From the IMG/VR virus record IMGVR_UViG_2606217118_000001: a stretch of 44,417 nucleotides of DNA. One strand, written 5' to 3'. A program made the position numbers and the translations under genes. This document shows, piece by piece, positions 16,827 to 38,843 of the stretch. The notes beneath the pieces were generated by a model, which searched no databases, was not told the origin of the DNA, and saw only the letters and a list, made by a program, of their open reading frames with translations. How positions within the stretch are numbered: position 1 is the stretch's first letter; every line of letters starts with the position of its first letter. The DNA comes from a virus. Lineage: Duplodnaviria > Heunggongvirae > Uroviricota > Caudoviricetes.

Positions 16827-17180
16827 TCAGCGGCGACGGTTAACGGCAGGCGGTACGCCCCGCCCAAGCCAGAGATGACAGCTTCCGCCATCATCCGGCG
16901 AAATCCGGTCTATCCAGAAGTTTTCCTCACCGATGGTCAGCGTGTCGCCGCGCCGCAGCTGCCGCACATCATCAGTCCGGACAAACAGGGACGGGCTGGA
17001 GCCTTCAACGCGTACGCCCTGTCCGGCATAGCTGATATTTTCAGGGTCATCAAAAACACCACGTATTACTGCGCCGGACTGCTCACCGGATGTCATGGTG
17101 GCTGACGTTCCCATGTACCCGCGTATCGTTTCATCGGCGCGGGCAATGGCAGCATCGAACAGGTTATCGAAATCAGCCAC
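16827..17180 (-). CDS. FII: Head-tail joining protein FII
   Basis: 117 aa, MADFDNLFDAAIARADETIRGYMGTSATMTSGEQSGAVIRG... Confidence 0.95.
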   Translation of the reverse strand: MADFDNLFDAAIARADETIRGYMGTSATMTSGEQSGAVIRGVFDDPENISYAGQGVRVEGSSPSLFVRTDDVRQLRRGDTLTIGEENFWIDRISPDDGGSCHLWLGRGVPPAVNRRR

Positions 17181-17191
17181 AGCGCCTCCCG

Positions 17192-17587
17192 TTATTGCAT
17201 TCTGGCCAGGCCGCGCTCTGTCATTTCAGCTGCCACACCGGCAGAGACACGGAACGCCGTTCCCGGCAGCACAAATGCCACAGCCTCATCCCGCGTGGCG
17301 TGAAGTGCATCAGTATGCAGCGTCACCAGTGCCACAACCGTGACCAGATCAGCCGTATCAGTCACGGTATCCGGCTGCGCTGATACCACCTCATTTTCAT
17401 GTCCGGTCAGCGCATTTTCCGGGCTGACAGATGTGTCCTGACCGGCAGCGTCATCCGTGTCATCAAGCTCCTCTTCCAGCTCTGCCACACGGAGCGCCAG
17501 TTCTTCTTTCGTCCCCGTCAGGCTGACATCACGGTTCAGTTGTTCACCCAGCGAGCGGAGACGGGCAATCAGTTCATCTTTCGTCAT
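17192..17587 (-). CDS. FI: DNA packaging protein FI
   Basis: Start at MTKDELIARLRSLGEQLNRD with GGAGGAG SD; longer upstream ORF extension judged non-coding. Confidence 0.9.
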   Translation of the reverse strand: MTKDELIARLRSLGEQLNRDVSLTGTKEELALRVAELEEELDDTDDAAGQDTSVSPENALTGHENEVVSAQPDTVTDTADLVTVVALVTLHTDALHATRDEAVAFVLPGTAFRVSAGVAAEMTERGLARMQ

Positions 17588-17628
17588 GGACTCCTCCACA
17601 GAGAAACAATGGCCCCGAAGGGCCATGA

Positions 17629-18654
17629 TTACGCCAGTTGTACGGACACGAACTCATCAGGGTCAGCCAGCAGCATCAGCGGTGCTGACTGAATCATGGT
17701 GAACTCACGCGCCGGATCGCCGGTGGTCACCCAGTTTTTCGGGTAACGGGCAGAGGCGTTAATGCCTTCGCGCTGTGCGTCCGCATCCTGAATGCAGCCA
17801 TAGGTGCGCAGACCGCGTGCATGAGTGTTACCCAGCACCATCGTGTTGTCCGGCAGGAAGTTCTTTTTGACGCCGTTTTCCACGTACTGTCCGGAATACA
17901 CGACGATGGCCACATCGCCATACATCCCCTTATAGGACACCGCTTTACCCAGGTCTTTCACCGCTGTCTCCAGCTCGGAATGAGAGCCGCGACGGGTATC
18001 CAGCTTCTCCTTGACGGCGTTGAAGGAACGGAACAGCGCCCAGCCTTTCGGATCAAACACGATGATATTCACCACGCCGCTGGCGTTCAGCGCGTAGGCT
18101 TCGATATCGTCGGTCGGGTCATACGTGGACTTGTCACGCTTGCTCCACTCCGTGCCGCCGGACTGCGTGATGTTGTTCGCCGCACTGCGGCCCATATCCA
18201 CCTCAACCGGATCGAAGGCTTCACCGGTCATGGTGTATTTGCCCTTGAGCACGGCAGAAACTGCCTGCATCTCTTCGACCTGAGCAATGGCCAGCTCTTC
18301 GTCACGCATGTTCTGCAGGATGATGCGACGGCGGCGGTAAGCCGGGTCCGCCAGATTCTGCGGATCTTCATCCGGCAGGCGACGCAGGGTCATCTGCGGA
18401 TTCACTTCATGCTTGGGTTTGACATATCCCGGCGTAAATTCAGAGGTGGAGCCGCCACGGGAACGGATAACCTCACCGGAAACAATCGGCGAAACGTACA
18501 GCGCCATGTTTACCAGTCCCGGAATTTGTGAGAGATAGACTTTCTCCGTAGTGAAGGGATAGCTCTCACGGAAAAAGAGACGCAGAAACAGCGGATCAAA
18601 CTTAAATTTCTGCTCATTTGCCGCCAGCAGCTGGGCGGTTGTGTACATCGACAT
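17629..18654 (-). CDS. E: Major capsid protein E
   Basis: Start at MSMYTTAQLLAANEQKFKFDPLFLRLFFRESYPF; 341 aa. Confidence 0.95.
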   Translation of the reverse strand: MSMYTTAQLLAANEQKFKFDPLFLRLFFRESYPFTTEKVYLSQIPGLVNMALYVSPIVSGEVIRSRGGSTSEFTPGYVKPKHEVNPQMTLRRLPDEDPQNLADPAYRRRRIILQNMRDEELAIAQVEEMQAVSAVLKGKYTMTGEAFDPVEVDMGRSAANNITQSGGTEWSKRDKSTYDPTDDIEAYALNASGVVNIIVFDPKGWALFRSFNAVKEKLDTRRGSHSELETAVKDLGKAVSYKGMYGDVAIVVYSGQYVENGVKKNFLPDNTMVLGNTHARGLRTYGCIQDADAQREGINASARYPKNWVTTGDPAREFTMIQSAPLMLLADPDEFVSVQLA

Positions 18655-32604: not shown

Positions 32605-32895
32605 TCATCTTTTAACTCCATATACCGCCAATACCCGTTTCATCGCGGCACTCTGGCGACACTCCTTAAAAATCAGGTTCGTGCTCATCTTTCCTTCCCG
32701 TTCTTCCCTGGTAGCAAACCGGTAATACACCGTTCGCCAGACCTTACCTTCGATAACCAGAAGACCTGCCCGTGCCATTTTAGCCGCGGCCTGATTTATG
32801 CTGGTTACTGTTGCGCCTGTTAGCGCGGCAACGTCCGGCGCACAGAAGCTATTATGCGTCCCCAGGTAATGAATAATTGCCTCTTTGCCCGTCAT
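32605..32895 (-). CDS. ren: Ren protein
   Basis: 96 aa MTGKEAIIHYLGTHNSFCAPDVAALTGATVTSINQAAAKMARAGLL... Confidence 0.9.
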   Translation of the reverse strand: MTGKEAIIHYLGTHNSFCAPDVAALTGATVTSINQAAAKMARAGLLVIEGKVWRTVYYRFATREEREGKMSTNLIFKECRQSAAMKRVLAVYGVKR

Positions 32896-33593
32896 ACACT
32901 TGCTCCTTTCAGTCCGAACTTAGCTTTAATTTCTGCGATCTTCGCCAGAGCCTGTGCACGATTTAGAGGTCTACCGCCCATGACAGGAAGTTGTTTTACT
33001 GGTTCAGGGATCGCCTCACCACGGTTAATTCTCGCAGTCATATGGACAAGCTCATCTGCGGCCTTACGGCGTAATTCCGCATCAGTAAGCGCATTGGCCC
33101 GCATGTTCTGATACAGGTTGGTAACCAGCCAGTAGTGCGCGTTTGATTTCCACGGATAAGACTCCGCATCCGGATACAGGCCTCGCTTCCGGCAATACTC
33201 GTAAACCATATCAACCAGCTCGCTGACGTTTGGCAGTCCGGCGGTAACGGATGCTTCTTCCCGGCACCATGCAACAAACTGCCCGGGTGATGGCAGAAAT
33301 GGTCGATTCTGCCGACGGGCTACGCGCATTCCTGCGTTAACCTGTTCCATCGTGGTGATCCCGTTTTCCCGAAAAGCCAGAACCCACTGGCGACGGATTT
33401 CGTTCACTTCGTTCTGGTCACGGTTAGCCAGGCTCGCCGGGAAAGTTGCCAGTAACTGGCTGAACACACCGTTGATGATCTGCGCTACCTGCTGTACCTG
33501 CGGCTTTTCGTCGTACTGTTCCGGCATGTTGTTGGCGATCCGACGCATCTGCTCACGGTCAAAGTTAACCATCTGTGCGGCGATGTTTTTCAT
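32892..33593 (-). CDS. P: Replication protein P (helicase loader)
   Basis: 233 aa MKNIAAQMVNFDREQMRRIANNMPEQYDEKPQVQQVAQIINGVFSQ... Confidence 0.95.
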   Translation of the reverse strand: MKNIAAQMVNFDREQMRRIANNMPEQYDEKPQVQQVAQIINGVFSQLLATFPASLANRDQNEVNEIRRQWVLAFRENGITTMEQVNAGMRVARRQNRPFLPSPGQFVAWCREEASVTAGLPNVSELVDMVYEYCRKRGLYPDAESYPWKSNAHYWLVTNLYQNMRANALTDAELRRKAADELVHMTARINRGEAIPEPVKQLPVMGGRPLNRAQALAKIAEIKAKFGLKGASV

Positions 33594-34489
33594 AGATCCA
33601 CCCCGTAAATCCAGTCTGTGTTTGTCAGGTCGAGTTTTGGTTTGCTGGCTGTCACGCCTGCCTGTTGCTTGTTACGGTTGATTTCGAGTTGGGTCCACTT
33701 ATCGCGGAGTTTGGCCGGGCTCAGCACGTTACCGGACCAGAAGTTGTCCTGGCATGCCCAGCGGAACAGCACACACATGTCGCGGTGGTTACGTCCGTCA
33801 CGTTCACGCATCAGGCGGATATCGTTAGCCCACCCAGCAAAATTCGGTTTTCTGGCTGATGGTGCGATAGTCTTCACCATGTCAAACATCCACTCTGCGG
33901 CGGTCAGGTCTTCTGCTGTCCCCCACTTGCTGCCGCTCTGAATTGCAGCATCCGGTTTCACCACAGAAAGGTCGTTTTCTGGCTGGTCAGAGGATTCGCC
34001 AGAATTCTCGGACGAATAATCTTTTCTTTTTTCTTTTGTAATAGTGTCTTTTGTGTCCCCCTGTTTTGAGGGATAGCAATCCCCCAATTTGAGGGATGTT
34101 TTATCCCTCGTTTTAGGGGATTTTCCCTCGTTTTGAGGGATACACCATTCTGAGATGTTTTTATTTGGTCCAAACATGCCGCCTTGCTGCTTGATAATAT
34201 TCATTCTGACGAGTTCTAACTTGGCTTCATTGCACCGTTTGACAGGTAACTTTGTAATCTCGCTAAGTTGAGAATCGGTGATTCTGTCCATTGGTTTATT
34301 CCACCCATAGGTTTTACGCAGAATGGCAAGCAGCACTTTAAACTGTCGCTTGGTCAGATCTGCGCCCGAATAAGCCTCAAGCAGCATATTTGATAGTCTG
34401 GCGTAACCATCATCGAGATCTGCCACATTACGCTCCTGTCCGGCAAAGTTACCTCTGCCGAAGTTGAGTATTTTTGCTGTATTTGTCAT
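33590..34489 (-). CDS. O: Replication initiator protein O
   Basis: 299 aa MTNTAKILNFGRGNFAGQERNVADLDDGYARLSNMLLEAYSG...; contains ori. Confidence 0.95.
   Translation of the reverse strand: MTNTAKILNFGRGNFAGQERNVADLDDGYARLSNMLLEAYSGADLTKRQFKVLLAILRKTYGWNKPMDRITDSQLSEITKLPVKRCNEAKLELVRMNIIKQQGGMFGPNKNISEWCIPQNEGKSPKTRDKTSLKLGDCYPSKQGDTKDTITKEKRKDYSSENSGESSDQPENDLSVVKPDAAIQSGSKWGTAEDLTAAEWMFDMVKTIAPSARKPNFAGWANDIRLMRERDGRNHRDMCVLFRWACQDNFWSGNVLSPAKLRDKWTQLEINRNKQQAGVTASKPKLDLTNTDWIYGVDL
34058..34142. repeat. ori: Replication origin: four iterons (O-binding sites) with adjacent AT-rich segment (about 34011-34056)
   Basis: ccccctgttttgaggga / atcccccaatttgaggga / atccctcgttttagggga / ttccctcgttttgaggga, each an inverted repeat; T-rich run alongside. 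Confidence 0.9.
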
Positions 34490-34566
34490 AATGACTCCTG
34501 TTGATAGATCCAGTAATGACCTCAGAACTCCATCTGGATTTGTTCAGAACGCTCGGTTGCCGCCGG
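34490..34566 (+). ncRNA. oop: oop antisense RNA (overlaps 3' end of cII) with its terminator
   Basis: Plus-strand hairpin cgctcggttgccgccgggcg followed by TTTTTTATT at 34541-34568, as recalled for the lambda oop terminator; 5' end approximate. Confidence 0.55.
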
Positions 34567-34818
34567 GCGTTTTTTATTGGTGAGTCCATCAAGCGCATAC
34601 TTAAAAGCCCTGCTAATCGGACTGATGTCTGATGCCATTCCGAAAGCACACAAGACCGAAGCAATAAATCTCCAGTCCGTTCTGCTTATCTTCGATTCAT
34701 GACAGCCAATCATCTTTGCCAGACCGCGCTGGGTAATAGCTGACAGATTGATAAGTAAATCTGTTTCTGCGCGATCAACGTCACGCTGTGATAGTTTGCT
34801 GTAACTTGTTCTTTCCAT
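34522..34818 (-). CDS. cII: Transcriptional activator CII, chimeric (non-lambda N-terminal region, lambda-like C-terminus)
   Basis: 98 aa; C-terminus ...LTNKKRPAATERSEQIQMEF matches lambda CII, N-terminal ~75 aa do not. Confidence 0.8.
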   Translation of the reverse strand: MERTSYSKLSQRDVDRAETDLLINLSAITQRGLAKMIGCHESKISRTDWRFIASVLCAFGMASDISPISRAFKYALDGLTNKKRPAATERSEQIQMEF

Positions 34819-34899
34819 TTCTTAAGATTTCCAATAGTGAATAGTTAGTTGAAAGGTATGCGTGGAAACGCATATGGCCTTAGTTGGTCAGATATCTTG

Positions 34900-34950
34900 G
34901 AACTCGCTTTTCAGCGACGTAGGACGAATGTCCGTTGTTACAAAGAGCGG
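34900..34950 (-). promoter_or_regulatory. nutR-like site (boxA plus boxB hairpin)
   Basis: Minus strand CGCTCTTTGTAACAA (boxA-like) followed by tcgctgaaaagcga hairpin, immediately downstream of cro. Confidence 0.6.
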
Positions 34951-34959
34951 ATCCGCTTA

Positions 34960-35175
34960 TTAAGCGGCTTTGTGTTCCGGCGGGAACACGTCATCAAGAC
35001 TGACTTTTGCGCCTAACTTGTTTAGGCACGCAACAAGAGCACGGCATGTTTTAAGGTCTGGGAAGCGACGACCAGATTCCCAATGTCCGATAGCTCCCTG
35101 TGTGCATCCAACTGCCTTAGCAAGTGTTGTTTGAGAGATATTCAGTGACTCTCGATATTTTCGTAGGTTGCTCAT
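34960..35175 (-). CDS. cro: Cro-like repressor (HTH, XRE family), non-lambda
   Basis: 71 aa MSNLRKYRESLNISQTTLAKAVGCTQGAIGHWESGRRFPDLKTCRALVACLNKLGAKVSLDDVFPPEHKAA; GGAGGG SD; longer upstream ORF extension rejected. Confidence 0.8.
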   Translation of the reverse strand: MSNLRKYRESLNISQTTLAKAVGCTQGAIGHWESGRRFPDLKTCRALVACLNKLGAKVSLDDVFPPEHKAA

Positions 35176-35286
35176 ATGCCCTCCATAGTAAACACGAATA
35201 AAAAAATACAATATGTACTTTACGAATACAAGTAAAAATACACATTGTGCATGGATGGTTCCAGTACAAAGCGTAATAATAAGGAC
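35176..35286. promoter_or_regulatory. Divergent cro/cI control region (putative OR operators, PR and PRM)
   Basis: AT-rich with repeated TACAA/TTGTA-type inverted half-sites (tacaatatgta, tacacattgtg, tacaagta); between divergent cro and cI. Confidence 0.55.
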
Positions 35287-35946
35287 ATGAAAATGAAATG
35301 GTATGAACTGGCTAGATCCAGAATGAAAGAGCTCGGCATAACTCAAGAGAAGTTAGCCGAAGAGCTAGGTATGACGCAGGGTGGGATTGGACACTGGTTG
35401 CGCGGATCTCGTCATCCATCTCTTAGTGATATTGGTGTGGTGTTTAAATACCTTGGTATTGATAACATATCATTCAACCACGACGGGACATTTTCACCTG
35501 TTGGCGAATACTCATCGGCCCCAGTTAAAAAACAATATGAGTACCCTGTTTTTTCTCATGTTCAGGCTGGGATGTTCTCTCCAGAACTCAGAACCTTTAC
35601 CAAAGGCGATGCGGAGAGATTGGTAAGCACAACCAAAAAAGCCAGTGACTCTGCATTCTGGCTTGAGGTTGAAGGTAACTCAATGACCGCACCAACAGGT
35701 TCCAAGCCCAGCTTTCCTGACGGGATGTTAATTCTGGTTGACCCTGAGCAGGCTGTTGAGCCAGGCGATTTCTGTATAGCCAGACTTGGTGGTGATGAGT
35801 TTACCTTCAAGAAACTGATCAGGGATAGCGGTCAGGTGTTTCTACAGCCACTAAACCCACAATACCCAATGATCCCATGCAATGAGAGTTGTTCCGTTGT
35901 GGGGAAAGTTATCGCTAGTCAGTGGCCTGAAGAGACGTTTGGGTGA
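35287..35946 (+). CDS. cI: CI repressor, chimeric: novel N-terminal HTH domain fused to lambda-like C-terminal S24/LexA-type domain
   Basis: [40 protein letters not shown]...; from [15 protein letters not shown] onward matches lambda CI; start could be 35293. Confidence 0.85.
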
Positions 35947-36012
35947 TATATGTGAAATGCATATATTGATATAAATGCAGCAATATCAAATAGTTAAAAG
36001 GTTATATTTTTA

Positions 36013-36393
36013 ATGAATGATCTTGATAAGAAAAAGTACGACCAAGTTATTGATTCTGTGAACTTCGCCCTTAGATCGTTGTCAGAGTTATTCGAAGCCC
36101 ATGGAATGCATGGGATGTATGATCTAACGAATCCAAGCCTTGATGAGCTAAAATTAGTGTTTACAAGGATGAAAAACGGAGTTGACTCTATTGCTCAAAG
36201 CTTTGAGCACATGGTAGAGACAGCAAAGGATATGGATGCCGCAAGTGCAAGCATAAATGTTATGAACATCAAGCAAGGATTGATGTATGCTGAATCACTA
36301 TTGCTTGCTGTAGAGAAATTAGACTATGATAAATGTGTGGAAGCAAATACGCAGATAAAAACCCACGATCTTCCACCAACCCAATGGCCTTAA
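36013..36393 (+). CDS. Hypothetical 126-aa protein in the immunity-region moron slot (rexAB position); unknown function
   Basis: ORF MNDLDKKKYDQVIDSVNFALRSLSELFEAHGMHGMYDLTNPSLDELK...; AT-rich codon usage unlike backbone; follows cI on same strand. Confidence 0.65.
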   Translation: MNDLDKKKYDQVIDSVNFALRSLSELFEAHGMHGMYDLTNPSLDELKLVFTRMKNGVDSIAQSFEHMVETAKDMDAASASINVMNIKQGLMYAESLLLAVEKLDYDKCVEANTQIKTHDLPPTQWP

Positions 36394-36462
36394 TAGTAAA
36401 TCAAGATTTCATATAGTCTATTTGAACTAGGCTAGTACCATAAAATAAACCGAGGAAACGCA

Positions 36463-36564
36463 ATGAAAACCATGTCCACTCTGCACAAAGATGCAATGAC
36501 CCTGAGATCTCTCATTAACGAGATTCTGGCTCGCTCGTCAGCACACACCAAAAAAGCTGCATAA
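36463..36564 (+). CDS. Hypothetical 33-aa protein downstream of the 126-aa moron gene
   Basis: MKTMSTLHKDAMTLRSLINEILARSSAHTKKAA with strong SD GAGGAAA 6 nt upstream; followed by terminator. Confidence 0.45.
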   Translation: MKTMSTLHKDAMTLRSLINEILARSSAHTKKAA

Positions 36565-36574
36565 TGCCTACATA

Positions 36575-36603
36575 ACCCGGCCTCAGCGCCGGGTTTTCTT
36601 TGC
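36575..36603 (+). terminator. Rho-independent terminator ending the cI-moron transcript
   Basis: acccggc-ctcagc-gccgggt hairpin followed by TTTTCTTT. Confidence 0.75.
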
Positions 36604-36739
36604 CTCACGATCGCCCCACCTAAAAACACATAACCAATTGTATTTATTGAAAAATAAATAGATGCAACCCACTAAACCACGCAATTCTGATCTCTCCTTA
36701 CATCGCCGAGGCAATACATCCACGCTAAAAAACAACACT

Positions 36740-36830
36740 ATTAAATACAAAGCGTTATAAAAAACCACGCCAACTTACAACAAATTGTATTGATCTTGTA
36801 AAGTACATATCGCACTATTTAACCGTCAGC
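36740..36830 (+). promoter_or_regulatory. Putative OL/PL region
   Basis: AT-rich segment upstream of nutL with operator-like motifs (acaaattgtattgatcttgtaaagtaca) resembling those between cro and cI. Confidence 0.4.
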
Positions 36831-36864
36831 AGGACGCTGGAAGCCAAATGGAACAGACTGGCAG

Positions 36865-36909
36865 GCTCTTTAAACAACGTCGACTCTCGACTACGTGGCT
36901 GAAAAGCCA
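36865..36909 (+). promoter_or_regulatory. nutL-like site (boxA GCTCTTTAAACAA plus boxB hairpin tggctgaaaagcca)
   Basis: boxA-like motif then GAAAA-loop hairpin closely matching the nutR hairpin; lies upstream of N. Confidence 0.6.
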
Positions 36910-37007
36910 GATCACCCAACCACATAAGCTGTGGGATGCAATGCCGAAGCAACCGTCTCAGGAGGAGCTTCGAGATTGCATCGCCAAAGTTTATTCGGGA
37001 GGAATCC

Positions 37008-37280
37008 ATGTCCAGAAAAACAGAATTTAAAGGCACCGCAGCTTCTCGCCGTAGAGCTCGTCGCGCAAATCTGCAAAGTCAGGAGGCGATCAGCTCCGAC
37101 ACGCTACACAGGCCAACCCCTTCACGAGTGGTCTTGCAATGCAAGCGCAAACCAGCAATGAGAGCAGAAGTGATAACTCTGACAACGTTGACCAGAAAAT
37201 ATGAAGGTTCAACTTGTCTTCCGAACGTAGCTCTTTACGCGGCAGGCTACCGGAAATCAAAACAACTGACGGCGAGATGA
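37008..37280 (+). CDS. N: Antitermination protein N (non-lambda; P22 gp24-like C-terminus) with N-terminal arginine-rich motif
   Basis: MSRKTEFKGTAASRRRARRANLQSQE...LPNVALYAAGYRKSKQLTAR; SD GGGAGGAA; longer track ORF starts upstream. Confidence 0.75.
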   Translation: MSRKTEFKGTAASRRRARRANLQSQEAISSDTLHRPTPSRVVLQCKRKPAMRAEVITLTTLTRKYEGSTCLPNVALYAAGYRKSKQLTAR

Positions 37281-37296
37281 TAAATTCATTTGCTAA

Positions 37297-37878
37297 TTAC
37301 TTGTTTTTGCCATGCTTATCCTGAGCGATAAGTTCATCCATAAGGCTGTCTGCCTTCCCGGCAAACCGAATGTAGCACTCATTTCTATAGCGTTCCGGGA
37401 TAACAAAACGGTCGATTTCAGGATATCCAGTAGCAGAAGGTATCCGAATAAGAAGCCCTTTTTCGAGCAATGAGATTGCTTCAGGGCTTCCCTTTTCTGT
37501 CTTTAGCTGGTTATTCGCGGCTACAGCGAATGCCAAATACGCTCTTTCTCCAAGAGTTAACGAATCAAACAAATCTTGCACATATTTTTCTTCTTTAGAT
37601 TTGCACTTCTGAGCAGCGGATACCTCAATTCTTTCAGTCACAGCGTGATAAGCGGAATTAACAACACCGTTAAGCACATAGCTAACGCAGAACAACAGGA
37701 TGTAATACATCCAATAATAAGGAAGGATTTCTGGATTATGCAGGTTTATCCATTCTTTTACGCTTACCGGCATAACAATAATCAATATGATCAGGATGAT
37801 TAGCATATGAATCAACTGTTTAAGTGTCATTCCTTGCAGGAAAAAATGCATTAGTTCCTGCCACCATGAGTTGTTCAT
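37297..37878 (-). CDS. sieB: Superinfection exclusion protein B (SieB-like) membrane protein, antisense to the PL operon
   Basis: 193 aa MNNSWWQELMHFFLQGMTLKQLIHMLIILIILIIVMPVSV... with two hydrophobic segments; convergent with N. Confidence 0.6.
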   Translation of the reverse strand: MNNSWWQELMHFFLQGMTLKQLIHMLIILIILIIVMPVSVKEWINLHNPEILPYYWMYYILLFCVSYVLNGVVNSAYHAVTERIEVSAAQKCKSKEEKYVQDLFDSLTLGERAYLAFAVAANNQLKTEKGSPEAISLLEKGLLIRIPSATGYPEIDRFVIPERYRNECYIRFAGKADSLMDELIAQDKHGKNK

Positions 37879-38022
37879 CGGCGTTTCTCTTTTGCTCTCT
37901 GTAGGGGTGAATAGAGTTTATCCGATTTCTCGCTGTAGGGGTACACGAGAACCACCGAGCCTGATGTGGTTAAAAGACAGGCACAATCTTTACTACCGCA
38001 ATCCACTATTTAAGGTGATATA

Positions 38023-38109
38023 TGGAAGAAGAATTTGAAGAGTTCGAAGAGCATCCTCAGGATGTGATGGAACAATACCAGGACTATCCGTATGACTACG
38101 ACTATTGAT
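38023..38109 (+). CDS. Small acidic ORF (lambda orf28-like)
   Basis: MEEEFEEFEEHPQDVMEQYQDYPYDYDY, 28 aa, overlapping start of ral. Confidence 0.35.
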
Positions 38110-38292
38110 AAAAATCAATGGTGTGGACAATTCAAGCGATGCAATGGATGCAAGCTGCAATCGGAATGCATGGTTAAGCCTGAAGAAATGTTTCCTGTAA
38201 TGGAAGATGGGAAATATGTCGATAAATGGGCAATACGAACGACGGCAATGATTGCCAGAGAACTTGGTAAACAGAACAACAAAGCTGCCTGA
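38092..38292 (+). CDS. ral: Restriction alleviation protein Ral
   Basis: 66 aa MTTTIDKNQWCGQFKRCNGCKLQSECMVKPEEMFPVMEDGKYVDKWAIRTTAMIARELGKQNNKAA. Confidence 0.85.
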   Translation: MTTTIDKNQWCGQFKRCNGCKLQSECMVKPEEMFPVMEDGKYVDKWAIRTTAMIARELGKQNNKAA

Positions 38293-38474
38293 TAGTGGCC
38301 TTTATTTTTGGCATAAATAACAGAATAAACACTGCACTGTGTATTCATTCCAACGAGTGAATACACGGAGCAATGTCGCTCGTAACTAAACAGGAGCCGA
38401 CTTGTTCTGATTATTGGAAATCTTCTTTGCCCTCCAGTGTGAGGGCGATTTTTTATCTATGAGGATATGAATAG

Positions 38475-38843
38475 ATGTCAAACATCAAAAAATACATCAT
38501 TGATTACGACTGGAAAGCATCAATAGAAATTGAAATCGATCATGACGTAATGACAGAGGAAAAACTTCACCAGATTAATAATTTCTGGTCAGACTCTGAA
38601 TACCGACTCAATAAACACGGCTCTGTATTAAATGCTGTATTAATCATGCTGGCGCAACATGCTCTGCTTATAGCAATTTCAAGCGACTTAAATGCATATG
38701 GTGTTGTGTGTGAGTTCGACTGGAATGATGGAAATGGTCAGGAAGGATGGCCTCCAATGGATGGTAGCGAAGGAATAAGAATTACCGATATCGATACATC
38801 AGGAATATTTGATCCAGATGATATGACTATCAAAGCCGCCTGA
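38475..38843 (+). CDS. ea10: Ea10-like early protein
   Basis: 122 aa MSNIKKYIIDYDWKASIEIEIDHDVMTEEKLHQINNFWSDSEYRLNKHG... Confidence 0.6.
   Translation: MSNIKKYIIDYDWKASIEIEIDHDVMTEEKLHQINNFWSDSEYRLNKHGSVLNAVLIMLAQHALLIAISSDLNAYGVVCEFDWNDGNGQEGWPPMDGSEGIRITDIDTSGIFDPDDMTIKAA

Follow-up and report, generated by a model that had tools for sequence, protein, structure and literature searches.

The 44,417-nucleotide (nt) viral sequence IMGVR_UViG_2606217118_000001, referred to at its full length as the window, is filled by a lambda-like prophage oriented in reverse to the lambda map. Its immunity region (34490–37280) contains the oop RNA gene, cII, nutR, cro, the operator region OR, cI, a cargo gene that we call orf126, a terminator, the operator region OL, nutL, and N. 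Each regulator falls in its expected Pfam family, and the neighboring gene encodes SieB. The sequence identities, breakpoints, domain content, and presence and arrangement of sites (operators, promoters, nut sites, CII site, oop, and terminators) reported here were established directly. We conclude that the region is very probably a lambdoid immunity module of the VT2-Sakai (Sp5) type, carried on a lambda-like prophage that has lambda's own O and P; it is assigned to this type because Cro is identical to that of VT2-Sakai and CI and N are each one residue away from their VT2-Sakai counterparts. The module is already known, and its patchwork relationship with lambda is real but is the usual mosaic pattern for this phage family. 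A preliminary description made from the sequence alone had proposed that intragenic recombination at domain boundaries in cI and cII had created a new chimera; that proposal does not hold, given that the region matches a single known immunity type, that of VT2-Sakai.

Regulators and sites of the immunity region

The window is approximately 96% identical to lambda in the structural genes, 99.8% in ninB-ren-P-O-oop, and 97.6% from ral to exo. Within the immunity region, pairwise comparison with lambda reveals three homologous islands (34490–34584, 35536–35947, and 36572–36696), and the DNA between these islands is unalignable to lambda. The non-lambda parts are the rest of cII, nutR, cro, OR, the segment encoding the N-terminal domain of CI, OL, nutL, and N; the absence of alignable lambda DNA in the CI N-terminal domain, Cro, the operators, most of CII, and N agrees with the preliminary description. 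None of the features that define lambda immunity was found: the CI N-terminal domain and Cro are not those of lambda, and operators of the TATCACCG type are absent from OR and OL.

Cro, correctly recognized at the outset as a 71-amino acid (aa) helix–turn–helix (HTH) protein, is 100% identical to VT2-Sakai Cro and gives no BLASTP hit against lambda Cro. The VT2-Sakai record AP000422 annotates OR1–3 and OL1–3, each of 17 base pairs (bp), as well as PR, PRM, PL, nutL, nutR, a terminator of the PRM transcript, and a CII-binding site. OR1, OR2, and OR3 map from this record onto the window with zero, zero, and one mismatch, respectively, and OL1–3 with one each, so that the predicted VT2-Sakai operator set lies at equivalent positions with two of six sites identical and the other four differing by a single mismatch. 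The 12 half-sites of the predicted operators yield the consensus A(A/G)TACAA, and the six 17-mers share the core TACAA-N-TTGTA; the TACAA/TTGTA half-sites had indeed been described as unlike those of lambda, and no lambda-type TATCACCG..GGTA operator was found in OR or OL. A 23-nt inverted repeat corresponds to OR1/PR and OL1/PL, and an 18-nt direct repeat corresponds to OR3 and OL3. When the window was searched for ATACAANTTGTAT, just two hits had at most two mismatches, and these are OR1 and OL2. An operator of the form TACAA-N4-TTGTA was considered and rejected: it gave 10 hits where 15.5 were expected, and its agreement with OL2, OL3, and OR3, the only sites that it fits, is coincidental. 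AP000422 annotates the operators as 17-mers with the TACAA-N-TTGTA core, and we adopted this form in its place. An additional weak operator-like sequence, TAACCAATTGTAT (three mismatches), is present at 36631–36643, approximately 100 bp upstream of OL3 and inside a lambda-homologous island; it may be due to chance.

The N protein differs from VT2-Sakai N at one of 90 residues (98.9% identity) and shows only a weak local match to lambda N (35%). As had been noted, it has an arginine-rich motif (ARM), RRRARRA at residues 14–20, and a C-terminus that resembles gp24 of P22: the last 24 aa are 79% identical to P22 gp24 and 92% identical to N of the HK140/HK630 type. The 933W N protein is 40% identical and longer (127 aa versus 90 aa), with an ARM and middle region of a distinct type. 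The N-terminal ARM, together with boxA/boxB nut sites in both early transcripts, supports the prediction that this protein is a lambdoid antiterminator. Both boxB elements consist of a 5-bp stem closed by a GAAA tetraloop, unlike the pentaloop of lambda, and the second stem pair is altered on both sides between nutL and nutR, a compensatory C-G to G-C change. The spacer hairpins of the two sites are unrelated in sequence. In the minimum free energy (MFE) fold of nutL, boxA pairs with boxB in place of the boxB hairpin, and the nutL boxB is called here from the local hairpin and from the compensatory difference between the two sites, with the MFE fold set aside. The nut sites had been described as non-lambda; this is so for boxB and the spacer, but boxA is conserved. 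A 60-aa open reading frame (ORF) at 36848–37030 on the plus strand (phrog_3137; hypothetical in RefSeq) covers nutL and runs into the start of N; rather than a gene, it is more likely to be a by-product that comes with the conserved leader.

The segment at 35947–36571 lies between the conserved 3' end of cI and a conserved island that contains the terminator of the immunity operon, and we refer to it as the rex slot. Its cargo varies among relatives: rexAB in lambda, orf126 in the window, an 852-nt ORF in 2G7b, H0093 and H0092 in VT2-Sakai, and genes for DUF1828 or NYN-domain proteins in others. The orf126 product is conserved at 66–100% in Enterobacteriaceae (E. coli, Klebsiella, Pectobacterium, and Pantoea) and has no match in Pfam, PADLOC, or NCBIfam. 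An AlphaFold model based on 20 homologues is a low-confidence helical bundle (predicted local distance difference test score of 68), for which Foldseek returned nothing from the PDB at E ≤ 0.001, only generic and designed helical bundles. We regard orf126 as a candidate exclusion gene expressed in the lysogen. The terminator island, which was missing from the preliminary description, starts where the rexB stop codon lies in lambda, in which the terminator follows rexB, and is probably the left-hand linker for swapping of rex-slot cargo. Just upstream of the terminator, a 33-aa ORF (MKTMSTLHKDAMTLRSLINEILARSSAHTKKAA; 36463–36564, plus strand) has no family match.

Table 1. Features of the immunity region, in window coordinates
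Feature	Position	Strand	Evidence
pO promoter of oop RNA	34464–34492	+	TTGAGT-17-CATAAT with TG; 100% lambda
oop antisense RNA gene and terminator tO	34500–34579	+	Terminator scan; mapped from lambda 38675–38599
tO stem, then T run	34546–34573	+	Terminator scan
cII, 98 aa	34522–34818	-	Pfam Phage_CII E 7e-34; three-way alignment
cII last 20 codons and stop, lambda-identical (100%)	34522–34584	-	Alignment
cII codons 1–78, VT2-Sakai type	upstream of breakpoint 34584/34585	-	Three-way alignment
Putative CII-binding site at PRE -35, TTGC-N6-TTGT	34796–34809	+	Identical site annotated in AP000422
nutR	34904–34949	-	RNA fold; annotated in AP000422
nutR boxA CGCTCTTTG	34949–34941	-	
nutR spacer hairpin GGAC-ATTC-GTCC	34933–34922	-	
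nutR boxB UCGCU-GAAA-AGCGA	34917–34904	-	
cro, 71 aa, all-helical HTH_3 type	34960–35175	-	Pfam HTH_3 E 4e-12
OR with divergent PR (-35 TTGTAT) and PRM	35204–35278	.	Mapped from AP000422
OR1	35204–35220		
OR2	35236–35252		
OR3	35262–35278		
cI, 217 aa	35293–35946	+	Pfam HTH_3 and Peptidase_S24; lambda alignment; codon analysis
cI N-terminal HTH domain, VT2-Sakai type	35293–35535	+	Alignments
cI hinge and C-terminal S24 domain, lambda type (135/136 aa)	35536–35946	+	Lambda alignment
orf126, cargo at lambda rexA/rexB position	36013–36393	+	phrog_16322 only
Lambda-homologous island (91%) with immunity-operon terminator	36572–36696	+	Lambda comparison; AP000422 PRM-transcript terminator
Immunity-operon terminator stem	36574–36595	+	Terminator scan
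OL with PL	36743–36817	.	Mapped from AP000422
OL3	36743–36759		
OL2	36776–36792		
OL1	36801–36817		
nutL	36865–36909	+	Hairpin analysis; AP000422 mapping
nutL boxA GCTCTTTA	36865–36872	+	
nutL spacer hairpin GTCGA-CTC-TCGAC	36879–36891	+	
nutL boxB UGGCU-GAAA-AGCCA	36896–36909	+	
N antiterminator, 90 aa	37008–37280	+	Pfam N_peptide (PF25694) E 6e-32

Junctions with lambda in cI and cII

Alignment confirms that the C-terminal domain of CI and the tail of CII are lambda sequence, at 94.9% identity over 35536–35947 and 100% over 34522–34584, and that the breaks inside the two genes are sharp; the lambda-identical segments of the preliminary description thus stand up to alignment. In cI (for which RefSeq places the start at an in-frame upstream ATG, 35251), the match to lambda 37637–37226 runs from the tyrosine codon of the YEYPVF motif to one base beyond the stop codon, and upstream of it nothing is alignable. 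The motif at the junction had been quoted as EYEYPVF, which is lambda's own sequence; the window reads QYEYPVF. Of the 21 differences in the 412 nt, 19 fall in third codon positions, and 20 are synonymous, the sole nonsynonymous change replacing W129 of lambda with leucine. Identity with lambda CI is 16–23% ahead of the junction and 135 of 136 residues past it. With respect to VT2-Sakai CI, the DNA-binding domain is 100% identical and a single residue of 217 differs, S209G in the C-terminal domain; the cI C-terminal domain is closer to VT2-Sakai (96.1%) than to lambda and is identical to that of 2G7b.

The family matches of CI (Pfam HTH_3, E 2e-10; Peptidase_S24, E 1e-28) and the presence of the QA-GMF, GNSMT, and FKKL motifs, which are the same as in lambda, support the prediction that it is a self-cleaving repressor of the LexA/CI type; as in lambda, the cleavage site and both residues of the Ser/Lys catalytic dyad are intact. 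The site of the junction is the hinge between the two domains, 10 residues ahead of the Ala-Gly cleavage site. To place it in a family context, we computed per-domain identities for 120 CI homologues. Among these, the lambda-type C-terminal domain (at least 80% identity) is found with at least five classes of N-terminal domain: lambda's own (99%), the type of the window (93%), a class that is approximately 45% identical to that of the window and whose HTH DNA resembles the phage L repressor, an unrelated class (approximately 20%), and a class approximately 65% identical to lambda's own N-terminal domain. The converse case is also present, with the N-terminal type of the window (77%) paired with a C-terminal domain of 57% identity. 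In an alignment of representatives, every class converges at one spot in the hinge, Y/F-x-Y-P-V/F-F-S-H-V-Q-A-G. We therefore read the cI hinge junction as family-wide and as one that appears to be old and inherited with the immunity type; that it would long predate this prophage is suggested because the C-terminal domain is 5% divergent from lambda in DNA, compared with 0.2% for O and P.

Two of the homologues have unusual compositions. In P0103, a 214-aa LexA family regulator of E. coli, the last approximately 100 residues are identical to lambda CI, the N-terminal domain is unrelated, and the hinge/cleavage-site region is of another type, which places a second breakpoint within the C-terminal domain. 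Within P0001, a 401-aa protein annotated as "Repressor protein CI [Bacillus thuringiensis Sbt003]", lies a lambda CI sequence (99% identity); the most likely source is a cloning vector or a contaminant in the Sbt003 assembly.

CII belongs to the Phage_CII family (PF05269), with a Pfam match over residues 1–92 and a TTGC-N6-TTGT site, and is 43% identical to lambda CII overall. In a three-way alignment, the window tracks VT2-Sakai to 34585 and then matches lambda exactly; past 34585, VT2-Sakai itself is homologous, but at 78% identity. The lambda identity of the island at 34490–34584, composed of the O–cII spacer and the cII tail, is 100% and continues through O, P, and ren at 99.8%. The oop gene is complete, with the pO promoter, the 77-nt lambda transcript with tO, and the overlap with the last approximately 55 nt of cII, as described by Hayes et al. 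(PMC3349717). The same authors report that CII activity does not require the last 17 CII residues and that 23 lambdoid phages, among them Stx2 II, Stx1-converting phage, and VT2-Sakai, have a conserved oop/pO segment (PMC3349717). The oop terminator ends a few bases short of the cII breakpoint. Because the oop terminator sits at this position, the oop/pO segment is conserved, and the CII tail is dispensable, we read the cII junction as the edge of a conserved, non-protein oop/pO linker of the replication module and not as a boundary of CII domains. The placement of both junctions at domain boundaries thus stands for cI, where the hinge junction is nevertheless family-wide, and fails for cII. 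Judged from the alignments, the junction between the immunity and replication modules at cII/oop appears to be a younger event than the cI junction. A scan of 33500–38500 against Rfam at E ≤ 1 returned only two chance hits (rliG and snR191) and no nut or oop family.

Origin of the mosaic and proposed working of the switch

Three other explanations for the patchy similarity to lambda deserve consideration, and we consider each of them improbable. The first dispenses with recombination: an ancestral lambda-like region would have kept its C-terminal domain and oop, and the parts that determine specificity would have diverged rapidly under diversifying selection. In its favor, the CI N-terminal domains are without exception HTH_3 members, the two CII proteins share the Phage_CII family, and at 43% identity between the CII proteins part of the difference is ordinary divergence. 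However, identities of 95–100% fall to unalignable within 1–3 nt, no similarity between the HTH_3 Cro and lambda Cro is detectable, the same C-terminal domain occurs with N-terminal domains of approximately 20% identity and the same N-terminal type with a C-terminal domain of 57%, P0103 has its second breakpoint within the C-terminal domain, and the window changes at 34585 from VT2-Sakai-like to lambda-identical where VT2-Sakai is 78% identical. We give this explanation little credence.

A recent origin, in which two intragenic crossovers with lambda would have made a new immunity specificity in this prophage, draws on the sharp breakpoints inside cI and cII and on the 99.8% identity of O and P to lambda, but is still less probable, being refuted by the matches to VT2-Sakai and its relatives. 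The same module is found in VT2-Sakai, which was sequenced in approximately 2000, and in many other phages: the core composed of cro, OR, and the cI N-terminal domain is 98.1–98.4% identical to VT2-Sakai, Stx2 II, Stx1-converting phage (Morioka V526), 2851, YYZ-2008, and the PA series and 99.3–99.7% identical to the lambda-like phages ev207, ev017, 2G7b, and PhiR57_1. The immunity type is also very common: of 5426 complete E. coli genomes, 776 (14%) contain the 576-nt cro-OR-cI core. Furthermore, the differences that separate the cI C-terminal domain from lambda (5%) are almost all synonymous, and this domain is 96.1% identical to VT2-Sakai and the same as that of 2G7b. A mis-assembly or a laboratory lambda-imm hybrid is the least credible of the three: lambda imm434 and imm21, discussed in PMC3349717, are of the same general design, but the junctions recur in the independent isolates 2G7b, ev017, ev207, PhiR11_1, and PhiR57_1 and in 244 complete genomes, and the window matches the prophage of E. 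coli 2009C-3133; these independent occurrences refute it.

We therefore return to a VT2-Sakai-type immunity module joined to the lambda replication module at the cII/oop junction. Exchangeable modules flanked by conserved linkers, at which recombination takes place, would account for the patchy similarity to lambda; the linkers are the hinge and C-terminal domain of cI, the terminator that follows the rex slot, the oop/pO segment over the 3' end of cII, and probably the 3' end of N. Textbooks describe the evolution of lambdoid phages as an exchange of modules at such linkers, and exchanges of domains within lambdoid genes have been described, for example, in Erf and gp24 of phages L and P22 (PMC8022706). 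The value of the region as a discovery is small, the module, its operators, and its nut sites having been annotated in VT2-Sakai approximately 25 years ago.

In the switch that we propose, CI (HTH plus self-cleaving S24 domain) and the all-helical Cro would compete for three 17-bp operators each at OR and OL, N would act at nutR and nutL to antiterminate the PR and PL transcripts, CII would activate PRE via the TTGC-N6-TTGT site, and the oop antisense RNA, contributed by the lambda-type replication module, would overlap the cII tail. Operator binding by CI and Cro, the action of N at the nut sites, the immunity phenotype, and the direction and timing of the exchanges are features that we infer from these comparisons. 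The specificity determinants (CI N-terminal domain, Cro, operators, N, and boxB) are non-lambda, so the non-lambda immunity predicted by the preliminary description is a sound expectation: the prophage should be homoimmune with VT2-Sakai-type phages and heteroimmune with lambda. In electrophoretic mobility shift assays (EMSAs), lambda CI binds the VT2-Sakai operators at 3.7–6.4 µM, compared with 0.2–0.35 µM for its own OR1 and OL1 (PMC10742460), and this weak binding is consistent with heteroimmunity. Cooperativity and RecA sensitivity of CI would be expected to be like those of lambda because the C-terminal domain is lambda's.

Several observations weigh against this interpretation or limit its precision. 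The six operators are annotation-level predictions, and the ATACAANTTGTAT motif with at most three mismatches gave 18 hits in the window where 16.4 were expected, that is, no enrichment. Relative to VT2-Sakai, four of the six operators carry a 1-nt change and identity over OL-PL is only 88%, so the quantitative behavior of the switch could differ. The exchange at cII/oop may have run in either direction, the window gaining a lambda tail or VT2-Sakai a tail of the HK022 type. Within the papers available, our literature search found no binding or immunity study of the cognate VT2-Sakai-type repressor; it returned a clade classification and the EMSAs with lambda CI, and no explicit description of the VT2-Sakai CI as a chimera.

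Because the C-terminal domains are nearly identical (a single difference), the DNA-binding domains are unrelated, and enterobacterial prophages combine this C-terminal domain with at least five N-terminal classes, we also raise the idea, which we consider speculative and rather unlikely, that the CI proteins of lambda and the window, or other "heteroimmune" repressors that share this C-terminal domain, could form heterodimers or hetero-oligomers in one cell. If so, mixing would couple or mutually weaken repression, with a shared RecA induction threshold, and prophages, among them Shiga toxin (Stx) phages with this type of immunity, would engage in cross-talk beyond what immunity typing predicts. 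The shared domain poses a testable question about repressor mixing in polylysogens.

Comparison with related phages and known immunity systems

The 3.2-kb region is matched over at least 80% of its length in the 244 complete genomes mentioned above, which come from poultry, humans, and wildlife, with a best identity of 99.9%, for example, in E. coli 2009C-3133. In this strain, the prophage located between ybhC and a lambda-type int is the same as the window, with identities of 100% and 99.97% over 28 kb. It carries an IS3-family element in ren (17130–18439 in that sequence, compared with window 32738–32742), whereas ren of the window is intact and lambda-type, and the two sequences diverge past 43776, near xis/int.

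VT2-Sakai (Sp5; AP000363/AP000422) shares with the window the same Cro, the positions of the operators, nut sites, PRE site, and terminator, and the lambda-like cI C-terminal domain. It differs in the last approximately 21 CII residues, oop, and O/P, which are of the HK022 type in VT2-Sakai and of the lambda type in the window, in the cargo that follows cI, and in OL-PL (88%). Phages 2G7b, ev017, ev207, 2B8, PhiR11_1, PhiR57_1, and PhiR63_2 combine the same immunity module with lambda-type O/P and are 96–98% identical outside the rex slot; between cI and the terminator, they carry the 852-nt ORF or a DUF1828 or NYN-domain protein and lack orf126. The proteins P22 gp24, H-19B N, and 933W N all belong to Pfam N_peptide, as does N of the window, and the nutR site of H-19B, which forms two hairpins with N bound to a boxB tetraloop, has the same architecture of spacer hairpin and boxB tetraloop as the nut sites described here (PMC3526286). 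In a survey of Stx phages, "Clade I" CI proteins are 61% identical overall to lambda CI (PMC8951638), and this overall figure fits CI of the window, a candidate member of the clade.

Lambda (NC_001416) resembles the window in gene order, the cI hinge and C-terminal domain, oop/pO, the cII tail, the terminator island, and O/P. It differs in the CI DNA-binding domain, Cro (which is of another fold class), the six operators, most of CII, boxB, the nut spacers, N, and sieB, and its rexAB genes are absent from the window. We suggest that the prophage be typed as VT2-Sakai immunity with lambda replication. The laboratory hybrids lambda imm434 and lambda imm21 likewise consist of a lambda backbone and a foreign immunity block joined via homologous flanks; the window, which is natural, differs from them in the boundaries of the block (the cI hinge not involved; the cII/oop edge; beyond N) and in its content.

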